64,000 bases of DNA from NCBI GenBank assembly GCA_050253415.1, contig JBFWJC010000005.1, positions 32,001 through 96,000 on the forward strand. The letters run 5' to 3'. The DNA is from Pedobacter sp. (GTDB lineage Bacteria > Desulfobacterota > Desulfuromonadia > Desulfuromonadales > Syntrophotaleaceae). Made by a program: the position numbers. This document shows, one piece after another, positions 39,001-48,000 of the stretch. Numbering within the stretch: the first letter of the stretch is position 1; each line of letters begins with the position of its first letter.

Positions 39001-42000
39001 TAAAAGGTCGAATGATCTTCTATTTGTTGGTGTTGGAGCAATTGATTGAGCGGGTATACACCGGCTCTGCCATTCTGTACAGAGCCGAGAATACGAGTCG
39101 ATTCTATATCATCGTTTTTCAGCCCCTCGAAGGTCTCGGAGACTCTGGTTGGTATATCTTCAAGGGAACACTCAATGAAAAAGACTCCTGGTCTTTCTGG
39201 AGTGGATGGGTTGAAGGGAAGAATTGCATTATTGGCTTTTTCGGCATCGTTTAAGAGAATACCCTCCGCAACATCAAGGATAGCAGAATCCTTCTCCTGA
39301 CTACAGATGACCTCAAGCTCTACTTTGGGCACAAGAACCGATTCTACAAGTTTATGGAACACCAGGCCAAATGAATCGGGTGGAAGTTGACGAGAGTCGC
39401 CAACCATCAGGATGCTTGCACCTCCTGGAATACATGACAAGAGGCGGTACATGGAGGACAAATCCACCATGGAGGATTCAACTATGATGAAAAAGGTGTC
39501 CTCGACCACCTGCCGCTTTCCACTTCTAACGTCCATACAGAATTTAGCAATAGGTAACGCCGGATGTAGCGTAAGATCTCGCATACGCCGGGCTGCAGGT
39601 CCAGAAGGTGCCATTTGGACAACCGGAGTGCCGGTCTTTTCCAAAACTTCGTAAATAGCCAAGAGGACGGTATTTTTTCCCGTTCCGATGCCACCACAGA
39701 TAATACTGAATTTTTCTTCGAGAGCTTGATAAACAGCCTGTTTCTGCTTTTTATTGAGTGTAATGTTTTTATTCTGACGGGCGCTTAAAGCCTTCTCGGC
39801 CGCTCGTATTCCACATTCAATGTCCTTGTCCTCAAATGCGCTAACGAGTTGGGTATCTGCTTCCTTGCGGCCATGAATGGCAAGCAGTCGTTCTCGAATT
39901 CTCCTTTCAAGGCGGGCAACGCCTCTATGCTGATATCCATCTTGCTTATTGCCCACAAGGACCTTTATTTCTTTAGCAACCGTCAAAGCCTTTATAGGCA
40001 ACGAACTATCACCTTCGTTCAGGTTAGCTCTTACCTTTGCCAGTAATTTGGAGTGCGGCGTCAAAGTGTGGGCTTTATCGTGGCGTGAGTATAGAGCTGC
40101 TTCTACTGCTCCTAGAAGGCGTCGATTATCGCATCCCGATATTCCTAAAAGACGGGCAGCGTTATCAACCAACTTCCATCCTGTGAATGCAAGTAGCTTG
40201 TAGGGATCATTACTCAGAAGATCAATAGAGCAGGGGCCCCAAGCTCGGATAATTTCCTTTGCAAGCCGGAAGTCTATCTCATGGTCACTTAGCCACCATA
40301 TGACTCGAATTTCCAAGGAGGCGGCTTTCCAGCGCTCGACCAATTCGGAGGCAAGAGACACGCTGATGCCCTCAGCCTGAACAAGTGTTTTGACGTCCCC
40401 AAGCTCCAAATGGTCCCTTAGGGTAGGGCCAAAAGTCGTCTTGAGAGATTTTATTTTCTTGGCACCAAGTGCGAAACCTCTCATGGTAGGGCTTTTGGTC
40501 AAGTAGTCGATAACGAGCCGACCCGAGGGCATATCAAGCAGAAGGTGGGAAGCACGCAATTGCTTTCCGTGCTTAGGGTGGTGCTCGAACACCCCTGTCA
40601 CAGTCCAAACTTCATCCTTACCCGGAGTTTGGAGGATGATGTTGTAGGGCGCAACAACCTTTATCTCTCCGGAATTGCTCTTCCCGGTAAAGATAGCACC
40701 ACCTCCCTGTGTTGAGAGGACCCTGTCAACGATTAAGCTGATTTTTACGAGCATGTTTTGCGTCGAATTTCTCTTCCAGTTTCAAGGAGGTGATCTTCAT
40801 CAGATAGGGCGTTTTGAAGTGCCTTTTTAATAACTTTGTTTTCCTCAATCACAGTCTGGAACTGGTTTTGAAGTTCAATGATCTTATTATTAAGTTTTTT
40901 GATCTCACGATCCCTTTCTAGCAGAAGGGACTCGGTGTTTTTGTTGCTAGTCTTAGAATCCGTGTTGGTTGGTTCGATCATTGGCAGGGTATATCCATGG
41001 CGCTTGCAGTAGTCCACAAGCAATTTGGTTACACCAGTATTCTCATAGACAGGTGTTCTGTATTTGTAACCAACCATTCGAAAAAGCTGGCTAATATTCA
41101 CCTTGCCTGCACGCAGGGGTAATTCCGGCTTTAGAGCCAAAAACGATCGCATCATCTCAACGTGTTTTTTCCCCTGTTCCAAACTCATCGGTGGTTTCCT
41201 ACCTACTTAATAATTGCTCGCTCTAGTTCACGTATTTTACCGTATGCTTTCTGGGACTTTTCCTTTTCTTTTTTTAATTCCTCTTCAAGTTTTTTGATTT
41301 TCAATTTTAAGGTTGCATTGACAGAGGCTTTCGAACCTTCAGAAGGGCGCTCCCTTTTCGAGGTTTCGCCAGTAACTTGACCATGATCTCCTTGCCTTTT
41401 AATCAAATCTTCAATCCGAAGACGAAACTCGCTATGATCATAGAGGTATGTTCGCGAAACGCCAGCTTGTCTTGCTACCTCAGCAATAGAAAAAGGTATG
41501 TTGTCTTTAAGCATTTTCTTGATAGCTTTTTGGGTCGATTTGGACTTCTTGTCGACCTTGTTGGCAGTTGCGGCCGCGAGAGCTTCTAATTTTTTAATCT
41601 CAGACATAGCTTCAATCCTTATATGGCGCTTGAACTTTCCAGACCGGTTATGATCTCTTTCAAGCGATCAATTTTCTTATTTGCTTTGGTTTGCTGTTCT
41701 TCCCAACCATTGTAGTAGGCGATCTTTTCAAGCTCTTCGTTTTCAGCAAGATGCTTTTTGTGAACAGGGAGAAAGACTCTCGTTGTTTTGAAGAATTCAT
41801 AACAGAATAAACAGGCGTCAGCATGGGGGCAATCGCCGGCTAGAACGGGTAGGGTGCAGACGCCATTAGGCAATATCTGTGTCATGATGTTTCTCCTTAA
41901 CCATTTTGTATCGAGGTTGGTGAGCGACATAATCTCATCAGCGACTTTGCCGATAACTTCACTTGTAGACTGAGCAACAAAAGCTTCAAATTCTCTTTTG

Positions 42001-45000: not shown

Positions 45001-48000
45001 CGAATTCTCTAGCGTAGGGAAGGGCTAGTTTTTCCCATTCTTCAAGCTCCAAATCAAGAATGGAGTGTGTCTTGGGGCGACAGAACTCTATAAATTTAAA
45101 AAATAAGCGAAGGGAAGTTGCGCCGGTGTGGCCCATAAAAGACCACTTGCCACTTATATAATTTCCTTTACAGAAATATTTACATTCGTTATTCAGTTGG
45201 GCTGAAAAGAATTTGAACTTAGAGAAATTATCTTGCCGGTGCAAAGAAGGATCGTTGCCTTCAACAGGAAGCGTTTTGGAAGACCACTGGTCTTTCGACC
45301 AGTATTCTCCAAGCGTTGACTCAATCGGAATTCGAGCCTTATTCTCTTTTGGCACAATAAAGAAACGATCCATTGGTTGTCATGACCTCCTAAGAAGCAC
45401 AGTTTGGCCTGTTAGTCCTTCTCCTTTTTTGAATCCCTAATATGGTTGTGATATATATTGATTGACACTCTTGATTCTTCATCATCAACGTGTGCATATC
45501 TATCTAGCAAAGTCGTCACGTCCTTAATCCCGGACCTTTCCTGGGCCACTTTGATGGAAACGCCACTTTTAAGCATGTCAGTGATATTGGTGTGACGAAA
45601 AAGGTGGGGATGTAACCTCTTTATGCCGGTCTTTTTCCTAACAGTTCTTACAATGCTATTAAAAGCACTAACCGTAAGAGCACTTCCTCTTGTAGGACCT
45701 TGCAAAACTACAAAAACGAAATCGTTTTCAAGGTCTTCAACCTCTTCGACAAGGTACGAAGTGTAGAGATTCATAACATCAGGTGTAACATCAAGGGTTC
45801 TCGGAGCTTTTGTTTTTTGATTGGATTTATTGGGATTGTTACGGCGCTTTCGGAAGGTGATTTTATTATCCCAGGCCTCAATGTCTTCATGTCGAAGGCC
45901 GAGTAATTCACCTATTCTGGCTCCCGTTTCATAAAATAGGGAGAATATGAGTTTATCCCGGATGGTTCTGCAACATTCAAAGATCTTGTCTAGTTCATGT
46001 TTTTTTAAAGGACGGATAATTGGAGGGGCTTCTTCGGGAAGCCTGATTTTATTGACAACTTGTGGAGCGTTTTTATCTATCCCTTCGAGGAAATTCCTGT
46101 ACTTTGTTTTTCTTTTGCCACGATGAGAGACAGAAACGGTATTCAAGGGATCGGTCTCGAAGGTACGTATTCTTGTATGGTAATCGTAAAAATTCTTAAC
46201 TGCTATATTTATTGTATTTATAGACTTGTTCCCACGAATGCGCGGTAGTGGCTCATCATTTATGTTTTTTGGGGCTACTTTTAAATAATTGGGATTTTTT
46301 AGCCACCATATAAAAGTTTTCAGTAAGCTAAACGATATATCTTCTTTCCAGTCAGCCTGAACTTGCTCGCAAAAAGTAAAAAAAAGCGTGAGGTGGCGAA
46401 CGTAGTTTTCGACCGTGTTTTCCTCGTAGAGAAGGGCGATAAAGTCAACCCACTTTTCGACATGGGGTAGCGGAAGATAGTCTTTGTTTGCGATGGTCCA
46501 TGATATTGTCCCATCGCTAAGCAGTATTTTCTGCATCTCCATTTAATTACCTCTTTCCGGTGTGGCCCAACCCTCCTTCACCTCTTTGAGAGTTGCTACT
46601 GAAGTTATCAACGATCTTGAGATCGACTTGGACAACAGGTACAAACATCATCTGGCATATACGCTCTCCAGGTTTGATTTCGAAGGATTCTCCGCTACGG
46701 TTCCAAACACCGATCAATAGTTCTCCTAAATAGTCACTATCGATAACCCCAATTAAATTTCCCAAGACAATCCCATGCTTGATGCCCAAGCCGGAACGTG
46801 GGGCTAGGACTGCCATGTGGTTTGGGTCGTGAATATTGATAGCTAGCCCCGTTGGGATGATTTCAGTTTGGCCTGGCTCGATGGTTACGGGATTTTCAAT
46901 GCAAGCCCTTAGGTCCATTCCAGCAGATCCGTCAGTTGCGTATGTGGGCAAGGGGATTAGGTTTCCAAGCAATGGATTAACAACTTTCGCCTCGACTATT
47001 CTTTTCATTTATTATAAAATTTCCCCTATTTAATATTGAGCGTTGATTCAACGATACCCAACGTTCTTGACACTGTCAATATGCCCTGTCAAGAACGTTC
47101 TTGATATGTTAAATATCCTAACGTAGCTGACGTAGTTGGCACAAGAATGGCATGTATGCATAAGATGCGGATTATCGAGGGGAACTCGGTATTATTCTTA
47201 TCAACCACGGCACGGAAAAATTTGTTATCTCCGATGGTGATCGTATCGCTCAGCTGGTTTTCGCTCCTGTTCAAACAGCCACCTTCGAACAGGTTGAAGA
47301 CCTGGATGAAACGGATCGCAATGATGGCGGGTTTGGTCATACGGGTTTTTAGTTAGGTGTCATCTGTTGTTTCCGGATGGGATCCATTGCCTTTGATCTG
47401 GAAAAAGGGAAAGGAAAACTTACCATGTTGCTTGCCATAAATCCCGAAACACCCCAGAAACGTCTGATAACCCGTGTTGTCGATTGTATTAAGCAAGGCG
47501 GAGTTATCGCTTATCCTACCGACACTATTTATGGCCTCGGTTGCGACATTTTCAACCGCAAGGGAATCAAGCGGATTTATCAGCTTAAGGAACGAACGGA
47601 ACGAAAGCCTTTTTCCTTCATTTGTGCTGATCTTTCGGATGTTTCCAATTATGCGCAGGTAAGTAACTTCGCTTTCAAAATCATGAAACGCTATCTGCCC
47701 GGGCCCTACACTTTCGTTCTTGACGCTACTCGGGTGGTACCCGATTTACTGGTAACCAAACAGAAAACCGTTGGTATCCGTATTCCTTCCAATCCGATTG
47801 CGCTAGCTATCGTTCGTGAACTTGGTCACCCTCTTGTCACGACCAGCGCCAATATCTCCGGTGAAGAGCCGTGTTACGATCCTTCCCTGATCGATGAGCA
47901 GTTGGGCAGGCAGATCGATATGGTCGTCGATGGAGGCATTATTCAGGGGGAAGCATCTACCGTTATCAGCCTCATTGATGACAAAATAACAGTGCTGCGC

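Follow-up and report, generated by a model that had tools for sequence, protein, structure and literature searches.

A dut gene split by a probable Tn554-superfamily element that carries a complete dut of another sequence type

The window, the 64,000-nucleotide stretch of DNA analysed here, begins at position 32,001 of contig C5 (JBFWJC010000005.1) of genome G000. The assembly comprises 18 contigs and seems to be metagenome-derived, so strain mixtures are possible. The native dUTPase gene, dut, is in two pieces, cut after codon 87. The 5′ part, which encodes the first 87 aa, lies on contig C7 (C7:3618-3878, minus strand). The 3′ fragment (window 47164-47349, plus strand; 62 codons) contains motifs 3-5; its translation, DADYRGE...GGFGHTGF-stop, matches Pfam dUTPase positions 69-129 at 5e-19 and shares 76-89% identity with residues 86-147 of the Duts from six congeners. 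Both fragments are still open, with 87-93% and 81-89% identity to the three nearest congeners. At the corresponding locus of each congener (6/6), the fragments map onto one uninterrupted 147-aa dut, overlapping by 6 bp, and the gene order pepM16-dut-yciO is intact, with yciO directly after dut. In the window, yciO (Sua5/YciO/YrdC family; 47377-48039, plus strand; Pfam 3.6e-63) forms the host flank. DNA homology with all six congeners ends at query base 779-783, which is the junction, and AGATGC is present at both junctions. The first six bases of the 3′ fragment, GATGCG, are the host core (att) and recur in the empty-site contigs of runs X3 and X4, described below. The first-pass annotation had reported the cut after codon 87 with parts on C7 and C5, the homology stop at the same bases and the AGATGC at both junctions, all of which were recovered here; its five of five uninterrupted congener loci are now six of six, and the position of yciO, noted in one relative, is common to all six. 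Three dUTPase matches occur in the whole genome, namely the two native fragments and one complete, element-borne gene, and neither Dcd nor a dimeric dUTPase was found in G000. The element-borne dut is the only dUTPase-superfamily gene complete in the genome, as had been claimed. That dut is essential here is an assumption carried over from other bacteria.

The element-borne dut (window 46547-47008, minus strand) is the first gene of an operon and encodes a complete protein of 153 aa. This length is counted from the first ATG, which lines up with the starts of 20 homologues; the first pass gave 151 aa, and the completeness of the protein stands. It matches Pfam dUTPase at 5e-34 and the NCBIfam dUTP diphosphatase equivalog at 181 bits (cut-off 103), and it aligns end to end with PDB 1dud at 3e-59 with the motif regions conserved. 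The carried Dut accordingly looks functional, judged by its sequence. It is of the E. coli type, with 65% identity to the Dut of a second element (L017, below) and 42-43% identity to the native type, in agreement with the 42% reported previously. Its kinship with gammaproteobacterial Dut also holds, although not as sole kin, since among the nearest relatives (70-74% identity) is a cluster to which a Desulfuromonadaceae MAG protein belongs. A quick tree of 120 Duts does not place the two element Duts as sisters, and a branch with an SH-aLRT value of 96 lies between them; because of this separation, a single ancestral capture of dut is not shown.

The carried and host genes also differ at the insertion target. 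The element-borne dut reads GATAGT at the target position; the crossover core is GATAGY in the carried duts versus GAT(G/T)CN in host duts, and the flanking arm is GGKGTTRTS versus GGNACCATW. These differences suggest that the carried dut would not be a target for the element's own recombinases, making it probably immune to insertion, and would not serve as a homologous-recombination partner for the native fragments. An AGY codon at the core occurs in both element duts compared with 2/80 chromosomal duts of the carried type, an argument that counts as about one event because it rests on two related genes.

The dut stop codon lies 4 nt ahead of the start of the first recombinase gene, as noted in the first pass, and the corresponding gap in L017 is 0 nt; in both elements, the coupling between dut and the first recombinase gene is tight. 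Three Phage_integrase ORFs followed by a DUF6262 ORF, all on the minus strand, make up the recombination module, matching the earlier description of three tyrosine recombinases and a small fourth gene. The Tn554-family modules used for comparison are on plasmids, in records that name genes only. The family takes in Tn554, Tn552-II/Tn553, the qacH transposon Tn6188 and the lnu(G) transposon. The TnpA/GinA-like tyrosine recombinase (376 aa; window 45412-46542; Pfam Phage_integrase 3.6e-29) is 32-36% identical to TnpA of these modules and 42% identical to its L017 counterpart. The first large TnpB-like recombinase (613 aa; window 43532-45373; Phage_integrase 3.2e-20) is 30% identical to its 632-aa neighbour, 25-26% to TnpB and 42% to L017. 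The second (632 aa; window 41619-43517; Phage_integrase 2.1e-19) shows 30% full-length identity to TnpB of the Tn554-family modules and 45-46% identity to L017; its best match other than L017 among 1.84 billion representatives is 36%. The identities of 33% and 29% to Tn554 TnpA and TnpB stated earlier are in line with these values. The TnpC/GinD-like small protein (134 aa; window 41203-41607; DUF6262, Pfam 1.6e-11) is 26-35% identical to Tn554-family DUF6262 proteins and 39% to that of L017. All four recombination ORFs are intact, with arginines and tyrosine in place, and all three recombinases keep the first arginine.

Upstream of dut, the leader/regulatory region of the dut-recombinase operon (window 47009-47153, minus strand) holds a subterminal motif, CGTAGCTGAC (47122-47131), which in L017 is equally far from the end, and a 13-bp perfect inverted repeat (47060-47072/47087-47099). 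A promoter-like site with a TTGACA -35 match (47079-47074, minus strand) is also present, at a frequency of such matches not above chance (2 found vs 2.6 expected). The right terminal inverted repeat of the element, GTATGCATAA (window 47154-47163), directly abuts the 3′ fragment. Its reverse complement, TTATGCATAC, matches the left end of the element, TTATGTATAG, from C7:3617 downward, as well as the L017 ends TTATGTACAC and GTATACATAA. The host core GATGCG stands at the recombinase end and the variant GATGCT at the far end. These junctions fit the 'brought-in att' model, by analogy with the Tn554 family for which it is described (PMC12486829, PMC10214605).

Exact 127-mer overlaps through a 2-copy repeat link the start of C7 to the start of C5, giving an island of about 83 kb; the link rests on exact k-mer overlaps, and an alternative path across the repeat would make the island 63 kb. 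The far ends, left open in the first pass along with the size, are thereby joined. The cargo is assigned to the island on the basis of the two junctions and the contig linkage. It amounts to about 77 kb, of which window 1-38591 (GC 0.35-0.52, patchy) contains, by Pfam, GGDEF/EAL proteins, PAS histidine kinases, sigma-54 activators, a TRAP/branched-chain binding protein, a T2SSE-type ATPase, a glycosyl transferase and IS256-family transposase fragments. Beside the module lie two accessory genes (window 38592-41188, minus strand), a 147-aa ORF that matches no family and a RecD2-like SF1B helicase of 720 aa, both absent from the L017 element. A second three-recombinase island in G000 offers a contrast: pncB is the gene that it splits, and the genome yielded no other NAPRTase gene. 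That island has a 30%-identical helicase at the same place, and the sequence similarity of the two modules is weak.

A second member of this kind is present in L017 (genome G428), an unrelated MAG with a GC content of 35% (vs 53% in G000). The PNPases of the two hosts are 52% identical, placing the hosts far apart. The L017 element is 6,058 bp long and consists only of dut and the four recombination genes, arranged on one contig as dut 3′ fragment, carried dut, three recombinases, DUF6262 gene and dut 5′ fragment. Its insertion in the host dut agrees with that of the G000 island in both codon and orientation, and it shares related 10-bp terminal inverted repeats and subterminal motifs. The two native fragments and the element's dut are the only dUTPases in this MAG, and pnp-dut is intact in the nearest relative of the host with dut in the locus. 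The native 5′ fragment carries a frameshift, which may be an error (contig coverage about 6x). A third member of the dut-splitting family was not found among at least 80 matches listed in a scan with the small recombinase, in large-recombinase scans of genome and metagenome collections, in a junction-pattern scan or in 400 genomes of the phylum.

Independent samples were also informative. In run X2, from a different study (depth 652), a 9,085-bp contig covers window 40001-47334, junction included, with 65 differences. A 1,157-bp contig of runs X3 and X4 (depth 62.8 and 5.8) leads directly from the 5′ sequence of native dut to position 47163 and beyond, as an empty site, in strains whose flank is about 98.5% identical to G000. 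The insertion is polymorphic among near-identical strains, being present in one sample and absent in two. None of the RNA runs contained the stretch. No circle or excision joint was seen in the sampled contigs, which cannot show rare forms.

Taken together, these data make it highly probable that a site- and orientation-specific element of the Tn554 superfamily splits dut and carries a rescuing dut. The attachment site would be the DNA for dUTPase motif 3 (…PGTID-A/S-DYRGE…) of 147-aa-type dut genes. Insertion cuts dut after codon 87 and removes catalytic motifs 3-5 from the reading frame, and the element would spare its host killing or crippling through a complete dut of another sequence type, placed as the first gene of the recombinase operon. 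The basic unit, dut with its four recombination genes, would be about 6 kb, and cargo acquired between the TnpC-like gene and the far end would have enlarged it here to about 83 kb. By analogy with Tn554, the element probably moves via a circular intermediate. The carried Dut is presumably expressed and would rescue the host, which would now depend on it. This interpretation is strengthened because a second, divergent element hits another host's dut, the same junction occurs in an independent sample, and the empty site occurs in near-identical strains. The same lines of evidence agree with the first-pass proposal that the element destroying the host dut brings the replacement.

Alternatively, the element could be a fixed, immobile relic, with xenologous displacement of dut in progress and the presence/absence pattern reflecting an old polymorphism or loss by recombination. 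The lack of a circle or excision joint, the IS fragments and 77 kb of cargo gathered by the island, and the frameshifted L017 5′ fragment, which fits long residence, are consistent with this scenario, as is the description by Wirth et al. of stand-alone rescuing kinase genes left in place of tmk (PMC10653934). However, the four recombination ORFs are intact, the native fragments in G000 remain open and close to their congener counterparts, and the empty site is exact. The core at the far end is not identical to that of the host, as a recent transposition would predict, and the L017 frameshift may, at that coverage, be spurious. We consider an immobile relic unlikely.

That the split is an assembly or binning artefact, with halves from different strains or chimeric contigs, deserves consideration in a fragmented, seemingly metagenome-derived genome with the two halves on different contigs. 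It is nonetheless extremely improbable, given that the junctions lie well inside contigs (3.6 kb from the C7 start and within C5), the right junction is spanned by a contig from an independent run, a single contig holds both junctions in L017, and the contig breaks are explained by the 2-copy repeat with its exact overlaps. Mobile elements often carry dut for other reasons, and the carried gene might be ordinary cargo or have another role (e.g., regulatory or anti-defence, like some phage dUTPases), with the dut target coincidental. The failure of the two element Duts to form a clade is compatible with this idea. Nevertheless, dut heads the operon in two elements whose recombinases share only 42-46% identity, and each element is inserted into a host dut at one and the same codon. 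The 6-kb element carries nothing else as a passenger, no further intact dUTPase was found in either genome, and the fetched flanks of the other 79 related-recombinase loci among the matches listed contain no dut. A coincidence of this kind is quite improbable, and a rescuing dut remains the preferred explanation.

It is rare for a mobile element to insert into a housekeeping gene and also provide the substitute. The principle that an island brings a substitute already has published precedents, and dut as the target was not found in print. The earlier assignment to the GInt type is upheld in architecture, but membership is not shown. In GInts, three tyrosine-recombinase genes and a small fourth gene form an operon at one end, insertion is site-specific in or next to genes, end repeats are imperfect, and variable cargo, often from related bacteria, reaches 70 kb or more (PMC5385486). 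The present elements share the gene set, its position at one end and site-specific insertion, but differ in three respects. The first arginine, present in all three recombinases here, is missing from GinC according to its description, the repeats of GInts measure 10-17 nt compared with a shared core of 6-7 bp here, and GInt cargo is described as 2.5 kb or more (PMC5385486) whereas L017 has none beyond dut. The text and one supplementary file of Bardaji et al. 2017 contain 0 occurrences of dut among insertion sites (PMC5385486). By sequence, with Gin proteins judged from their description, the module resembles the Tn554 family more than it does canonical GInts.

As in the Tn554 family, the inward order from one end is TnpA-like, TnpB-like and DUF6262/TnpC-like, and the element enters a gene with specificity for site and orientation; in locus L205, the sequence just upstream of tnpA is a radC-like JAB fragment. 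A 6-7 bp att at the tnpA end with a differing, brought-in att at the far end is likewise shared (PMC12486829, PMC10214605). Tn552-II carries a 'target-gene-like' gene, for which the authors suggest possible rescue of the disrupted target (PMC12486829). The present element differs from the known family in having two TnpB paralogues rather than one, in targeting dut at a catalytic motif rather than radC or a yolD-like gene, in cargo of up to about 77 kb, and in its environmental, Gram-negative-type hosts rather than Staphylococcus, Enterococcus or Listeria. Its rescue gene, before tnpA and first in the operon, encodes a full and seemingly functional housekeeping enzyme.

In Pseudomonas putida KT2440, a 65-kb island splits tmk, an essential gene of thymidine-nucleotide metabolism, and the lost function is provided by a gene at the island end, whose neighbours are two tyrosine recombinases, a TetR regulator and an uncharacterised protein (Wirth et al. 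2023, PMC10653934). There, tmk is called a 'landing site' for related islands of variable size in several genera, the rescuer is a non-homologous T4-like dNMP kinase rather than a homologue of the target, and the account of the island does not analyse the module and junctions as those of a Tn554-type transposon (PMC10653934). The targets thus differ, tmk there and dut here, the modules being compared by description. Target function is also kept despite insertion into a gene by tRNA-gene integrases, by phage 21/e14 in icd and by SXT in prfC, which rebuild the end of the target gene. Such integrators duplicate only the displaced gene end at the att site, whereas the present element destroys dut by interrupting it in mid-frame and supplies an entire, separate copy that has putative expression signals of its own.

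The first-pass annotation held that the native dut gene is split by an integrative element, and the two fragments bear this out. The native 3' fragment, comprising the last 62 codons (DADYRGE…GGFGHTGF*), begins at 47164 on the plus strand and is followed by yciO, and the 5' fragment lies at C7:3618-3878 on the minus strand, behind pnp and a pepM16 gene (prefixed positions run along whole contigs). In 6 of 6 congeners both fragments map to one open 147-aa gene between pepM16 and yciO, with a 6-bp overlap, and DNA homology to all six breaks off at the junction. The inserted DNA ends at 47163, 155 bp upstream of a complete dut carried by the element. 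A whole-genome family search returned three dUTPase matches in the genome under study (G000), of which only the carried gene is complete, the others being the 3' and 5' fragments; this supports the further claim that the element brings its own dUTPase, now the only intact one. Searches of the G000 genome turned up neither a dCTP deaminase-type nor a dimeric dUTPase. The reading frame of the native 5' fragment continues for 28 further codons inside the element, making a 115-aa ORF (3531-3878, minus strand, of the C7 locus L004). It may still be transcribed with pnp and pepM16, and a truncated Dut subunit could be made from the 115-aa ORF.

The carried dut (46547-47008, minus strand, 153 aa) is the first gene of a tightly packed operon read from 47008 downward. 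A TnpA-type tyrosine recombinase of 376 aa with a Phage_integrase match (45412-46542, minus strand) starts 4 nt past it. Two large tyrosine recombinases follow, one of 613 aa (43532-45373, minus strand) and a TnpB-type protein of 632 aa (41619-43517, minus strand), with a mutual identity of 30%, and a 134-aa DUF6262 protein (41203-41607, minus strand; Pfam DUF6262, 1.6e-11) is the last of the set. A promoter scan upstream of the operon gave matches not above chance. The carried Dut scores 181 bits against NCBIfam NF001862 (dUTP diphosphatase equivalog; cut-off 103) and aligns with the solved Dut 1dud over residues 3-152 with the motif regions conserved. Being full-length, above the curated cut-off and conserved in its motifs, it classes as a trimeric dUTPase (Dut), and its identity to the native-type Dut is 42-43%. 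The putative rescue gene is a full homologue of its target, divergent from it, and heads the recombinase operon.

A second, much smaller element of this kind was found with an alignment of the small recombinase, in a scan of one genome per species that yielded at least 80 loci. Most of the 80 loci listed are modules from cyanobacteria and actinobacteria that combine a DUF6262 gene with one or two large recombinases; a dut is present in 1 of the 80. That locus, L017, lies in an unrelated MAG and is the closest relative among the matches listed, its four recombination proteins being 42%, 42%, 45% and 39% identical and its Dut 65% identical to those of G000. Its single contig holds, in order, the native dut 3' fragment, an inverted complete dut, three recombinases, a DUF6262 gene and the dut 5' fragment. 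There are 0 nt between the complete dut and the first recombinase gene and 135 bp from the DUF6262 gene to the 5' fragment, and the 6,058-bp element has no passenger besides dut. The L017 MAG has just three dUTPase matches, the two fragments and the element dut. A relative of the L017 host has an intact pnp-dut arrangement, to which the fragments map with a 6-bp overlap (only 1 of the 7 loci fetched contains dut). The two hosts are far apart, with PNPases 52% identical and GC contents of 35% (L017 MAG) versus 53% (G000). The native 5' fragment in L017 contains one frameshift at 13580-13600, between ...GMDVFSANK and PITIDPS..., which may be either decay of the displaced gene or a contig error at ~6x coverage.

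Comparison of the two elements defines the target. In the native dut direction, the G000 junctions read …CCATA GATGCT / TTATGTATAG… (left) and …GTATGCATAA / GATGCG GATTAT… (right), and those of L017 read …CCATT GATTCA / TTATGTACAC… and …GTATACATAA / GATTCA GATTTT…. Both elements are inserted between the Asp and Ala/Ser codons of motif 3, where the host dut target site follows the pattern GGNACCATWGAY(G/T)CN. Site and orientation agree in 2 of 2 elements, few as these are: the same dut codon is hit, with the recombinase end pointing at the dut 3' fragment. Both elements have imperfect 10-bp terminal inverted repeats (consensus TTATGTATAC), and they have in common a subterminal motif near the left end, ATCGT(A/C)GTT(G/T)ACATGTAA, and another, CG(T/C)NG(C/T)T(G/T)AC, 33-42 nt from the right end. 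The core shared by both ends is 6-7 bp. The two cores are identical in L017; in G000 the host core GATGCG stands at the recombinase end and GATGCT, a single-base difference, at the far end. The far-end core also occurs in the dut of two congeners, and the 300 bp at the far end have a GC of 0.43 versus 0.53 for the genome. PMC12486829 describes a "brought-in att" at the far end for Tn554 and Tn552-II. The G000 cores appear to fit this Tn554 model, a fit that turns on a single base.

The same site differs in the carried genes. The two carried duts have GATAGT and GATAGC at the target position, and their upstream arms are GGGGTTATC and GGTGTTGTG, as compared to GGTACCATA and GGGACCATT in the hosts. 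Of the 80 listed chromosomal duts of the carried type, 2 have an AGY serine codon; since both element duts are related to each other, their AGY codon counts as about one event. Diverged at both the core and the upstream arm, the carried copy may escape insertion. At 42% protein identity, the carried gene also lacks the DNA homology through which it could recombine with the native fragments. That the carried dut is expressed and rescues the host, that the element moves through a circular intermediate and that the carried copy is immune are all predictions from sequence.

Contigs of four public metagenome runs (X1-X4) were compared with the window, X1, a possible source of this DNA, not being counted as an independent sample. 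X2, from another study, contains a 9,085-bp contig at depth 652 that covers 40001-47334 with 65 differences and so reaches 171 bases beyond the right junction. A 1,157-bp contig is present in both X3 (depth 62.8) and X4 (depth 5.8) and matches 47163-48147 with 15 differences. In this contig, 173 letters precede the match, ending …CGTGACGTTGGTGAACGCGCCCGGTACCAT, and 28 of these last 30 positions match the native dut 5' sequence. The X3/X4 contig is the empty site, with core GATGCG. Island pieces in X3 occur only at depth 1-4. The junction contig in X2 and the empty site in X3 and X4 indicate that the island is polymorphic among near-identical strains. No circle or excision joints were reported among the public-run contigs, which are unable to show rare forms.

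The island extends beyond the window, and its size depends on how contigs C7 and C5 are joined. Contig ends in this assembly share 127-base overlaps, and the island linkage is drawn from k-mers, with no reads involved. C7 begins with 127 bases that recur exactly, in reverse orientation, at C5:19460-19586; the 127 bases at the start of C5 recur exactly at C5:19769-19895. Neither of these overlaps is shared by any other contig end. Both identities indicate that a second copy of a ~640-bp repeat bridges the starts of C7 and C5. The order would then be pnp, pepM16, the dut 5' fragment, C7 from 3617 to 1, ~182 bp, C5 from 1 to 79163, the dut 3' fragment and yciO, which puts the island at a k-mer-based estimate of ~82,960 bp (~83 kb); the other route through the repeat would give ~63,200 bp. 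The repeat is present in two copies within the island (C5:19311-19952, and C7:1-276 with C5:1-184), which accounts for the contig breaks. Its ends hold a hairpin-like unit of ~58 bp (…AAAACCCCG…CGGGGTTT…) that is also found at several further places on C1, C2, C4 and C5 and resembles a small REP or MITE-type repeat.

The GC content is 45.6% for the island and 43.0% for the dut-recombinase module, versus 52.9% for the genome. The cargo consists mostly of signalling genes, together with TrkAH, a BglII-like endonuclease, a RecD2-like SF1B helicase (38592-40754, minus strand) and fragments of an IS256-family (Mutator-type) transposase (35009-36280, minus strand), the two halves of which are matched by neighbouring ORFs and mark a broken IS. 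No phage or conjugation genes were seen in the cargo ORFs scanned. A 6.7-kb block (C5:3479-10165, locus L015) encodes TrkH, TrkA, a response regulator, a histidine kinase and a sigma-54 activator, and has counterparts at 74-78% identity in two congeners, G003 and G004; G000 has no second copy. That these congeners share C5:3.5-10.2 kb could mark it as core DNA outside the island, a reading rejected because the block lies in another chromosomal neighbourhood in each. Its occurrence in congeners agrees with GInt cargo as reported in PMC5385486.

Elements of this kind appear to be rare, with all member counts being lower bounds from matches listed or pattern-based scans. A large-recombinase scan of species-representative genomes gave no further member, its sole match being the contig of L017, and the same scan of a metagenome collection gave 6 loci at 26% identity, 0 of 6 with a dut. 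A scan with the junction pattern gave eight matches, of which one, again the L017 contig, is real and seven are chance matches without dut or recombinase. There were 0 matches at E <= 1e-40 in 400 other genomes of the phylum, and genome contigs scanned with the small recombinase as a single protein gave nothing. A Dut-alignment scan gave at least 80 chromosomal duts at 50-61% identity, L017 not being among the matches listed; 0 of the 80 listed have a large recombinase beside them, and two had unrelated integrase-like matches far from dut. An exhaustive HMMER search of 1.84 billion representatives with the 632-aa recombinase gave a best non-self identity of 36% and 130 matches at E ≤ 1e-30. 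The L017 protein (45%) was not seen in these results, so the library either does not hold it or represents it by another sequence. A recombinase that shares at least 90% identity with that of L017 lies on a 6,002-bp contig. Homologues of the carried Dut at 70-74% identity occur in metagenomes, one cluster including a Desulfuromonadaceae MAG protein. A quick tree of 120 Duts does not place the two element Duts as sisters, which leaves a single ancestral dut capture unsupported by that tree.

We tentatively propose that these are gene-replacement transposons, a Tn554-type lineage that would land in the best-conserved part of an indispensable gene, near-universal in bacteria, and pay with a target-immune copy heading the recombinase operon, a reading to which we give slightly less than an even chance. 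If it holds, the host range should be very wide, given that the two known hosts are deeply divergent. The host would depend on the element, the carried gene acting like an addiction module against deletion, and the site would be a safe, expandable platform for cargo, here spanning 6 to 83 kb. An element could in this way use the DNA that encodes a housekeeping enzyme's catalytic motif as an attachment site without host death, and that site would be kept across distant bacteria by protein function. Such insertions would also provide a route by which an enzyme is displaced by a distant homologue, accounting for "odd" dut phylogenies, and they carry an annotation warning: a missing or split core gene may mark an island with a substitute.

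The element can be compared with both Tn554 and the GInts. It shares with Tn554 a TnpA-type protein of ~360 aa in first position, a TnpB-type protein of ~630 aa, a small TnpC (DUF6262) after TnpB and, judging by the two elements, insertion specific for site and orientation; unlike Tn554, it has a second TnpB-type paralogue (613 aa). Over ~325-361 aa, the 376-aa recombinase shares 32-36% identity with the first recombinase of two Tn554-family plasmid modules. The 632-aa recombinase is 30% identical to their large integrase over 98-99% of its length (E 1e-80, tblastn against plasmids), the 613-aa recombinase is 25-26% identical to TnpB of Tn554-family modules, and the DUF6262 protein is 26-35% identical to the third gene of the plasmid modules, annotated as a DUF6262 family protein. 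One Tn554-family plasmid record has a radC-like JAB fragment directly before the first recombinase. A 6-bp footprint is described for Tn554 and SEs in PMC10214605. The architecture fits that of the GInts, whose ginABCD operon at one island end encodes three tyrosine recombinases plus a small protein; here a dut precedes the first recombinase. GInts are described in PMC5385486 as having a GinC that lacks the first catalytic arginine, ends marked by imperfect direct repeats (10-17 nt), an AT-rich far end and at least 2.5 kb of cargo. Here, all three ORFs keep the arginine of ...TGxR/GPR... (YETGARIGE, LEVGPRVTE and DETGARFGE, read by eye), R360 is invariant between the two elements, the end repeats are shorter (6-7 bp), and cargo is ~77 kb in G000 and nil in L017. 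On the Tn554-type identities, the kept arginine, the short repeats and the cargo-free minimal form, we would call this a Tn554-superfamily element with GInt-like architecture, as set against GInts by their published description.

A second island of G000 (C2:25.5-33.3 kb; together with its split target, C2:25563-34235, L211:5084-14235, and C1:380-898) likewise has three recombinases (ORFs of 433, 647 and 603 aa), along with a DUF6262 gene (171 aa) and a RecD2-like helicase; the dut-island module is far less similar to it than to the Tn554-family modules. This island splits pncB (nicotinate phosphoribosyltransferase, salvage) into an N-terminal part at C2:33348-34235 (minus strand) and a C-terminal part at C1:380-898 (plus strand). 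No other NAPRTase gene was found in G000, so the second island brings no substitute. The helicases of the two islands (38592-40754 and C2:25563-27713, both minus strand) are 30% identical, lie directly behind the DUF6262 gene and weakly resemble the helicase portion of TraA-type relaxases; the L017 element has none. The RecD2-like helicase may be an accessory function of large islands.

Bardaji 2017 (PMC5385486), in its text and one supplementary file, does not mention dut; the available portion of Idola 2023 (PMC10214605) has no occurrence of it, and no description of dut as a target of Tn554-type insertion was found in the literature, where broader matches were judged by title and abstract. 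The principle of an island supplying the function of its split target is already in print. Wirth 2023 (PMC10653934) describes a 65-kb island that splits tmk, called a landing site by the authors, in P. putida KT2440 and carries an essential dNMP kinase adjoining two tyrosine recombinases. Wan 2025 (PMC12486829) reports a "target-gene-like" gene in Tn552-II, for which a part in rescue is suggested. Taken with the tmk and yolD-like cases in print, the principle may be general; should our proposal be true, the dut elements, tmk islands and "target-gene-like" genes would together point to a general, still unnamed rule for Tn554/GInt-type elements. The 6-kb form is a compact natural system for studying target recognition and the three recombinase roles in the poorly understood Tn554/GInt/SE group. 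New in comparison with these systems are dut as a target, hit at a catalytic motif, the homologous, target-divergent putative rescue gene, the 6-kb form in a distant host and the natural presence/absence polymorphism.
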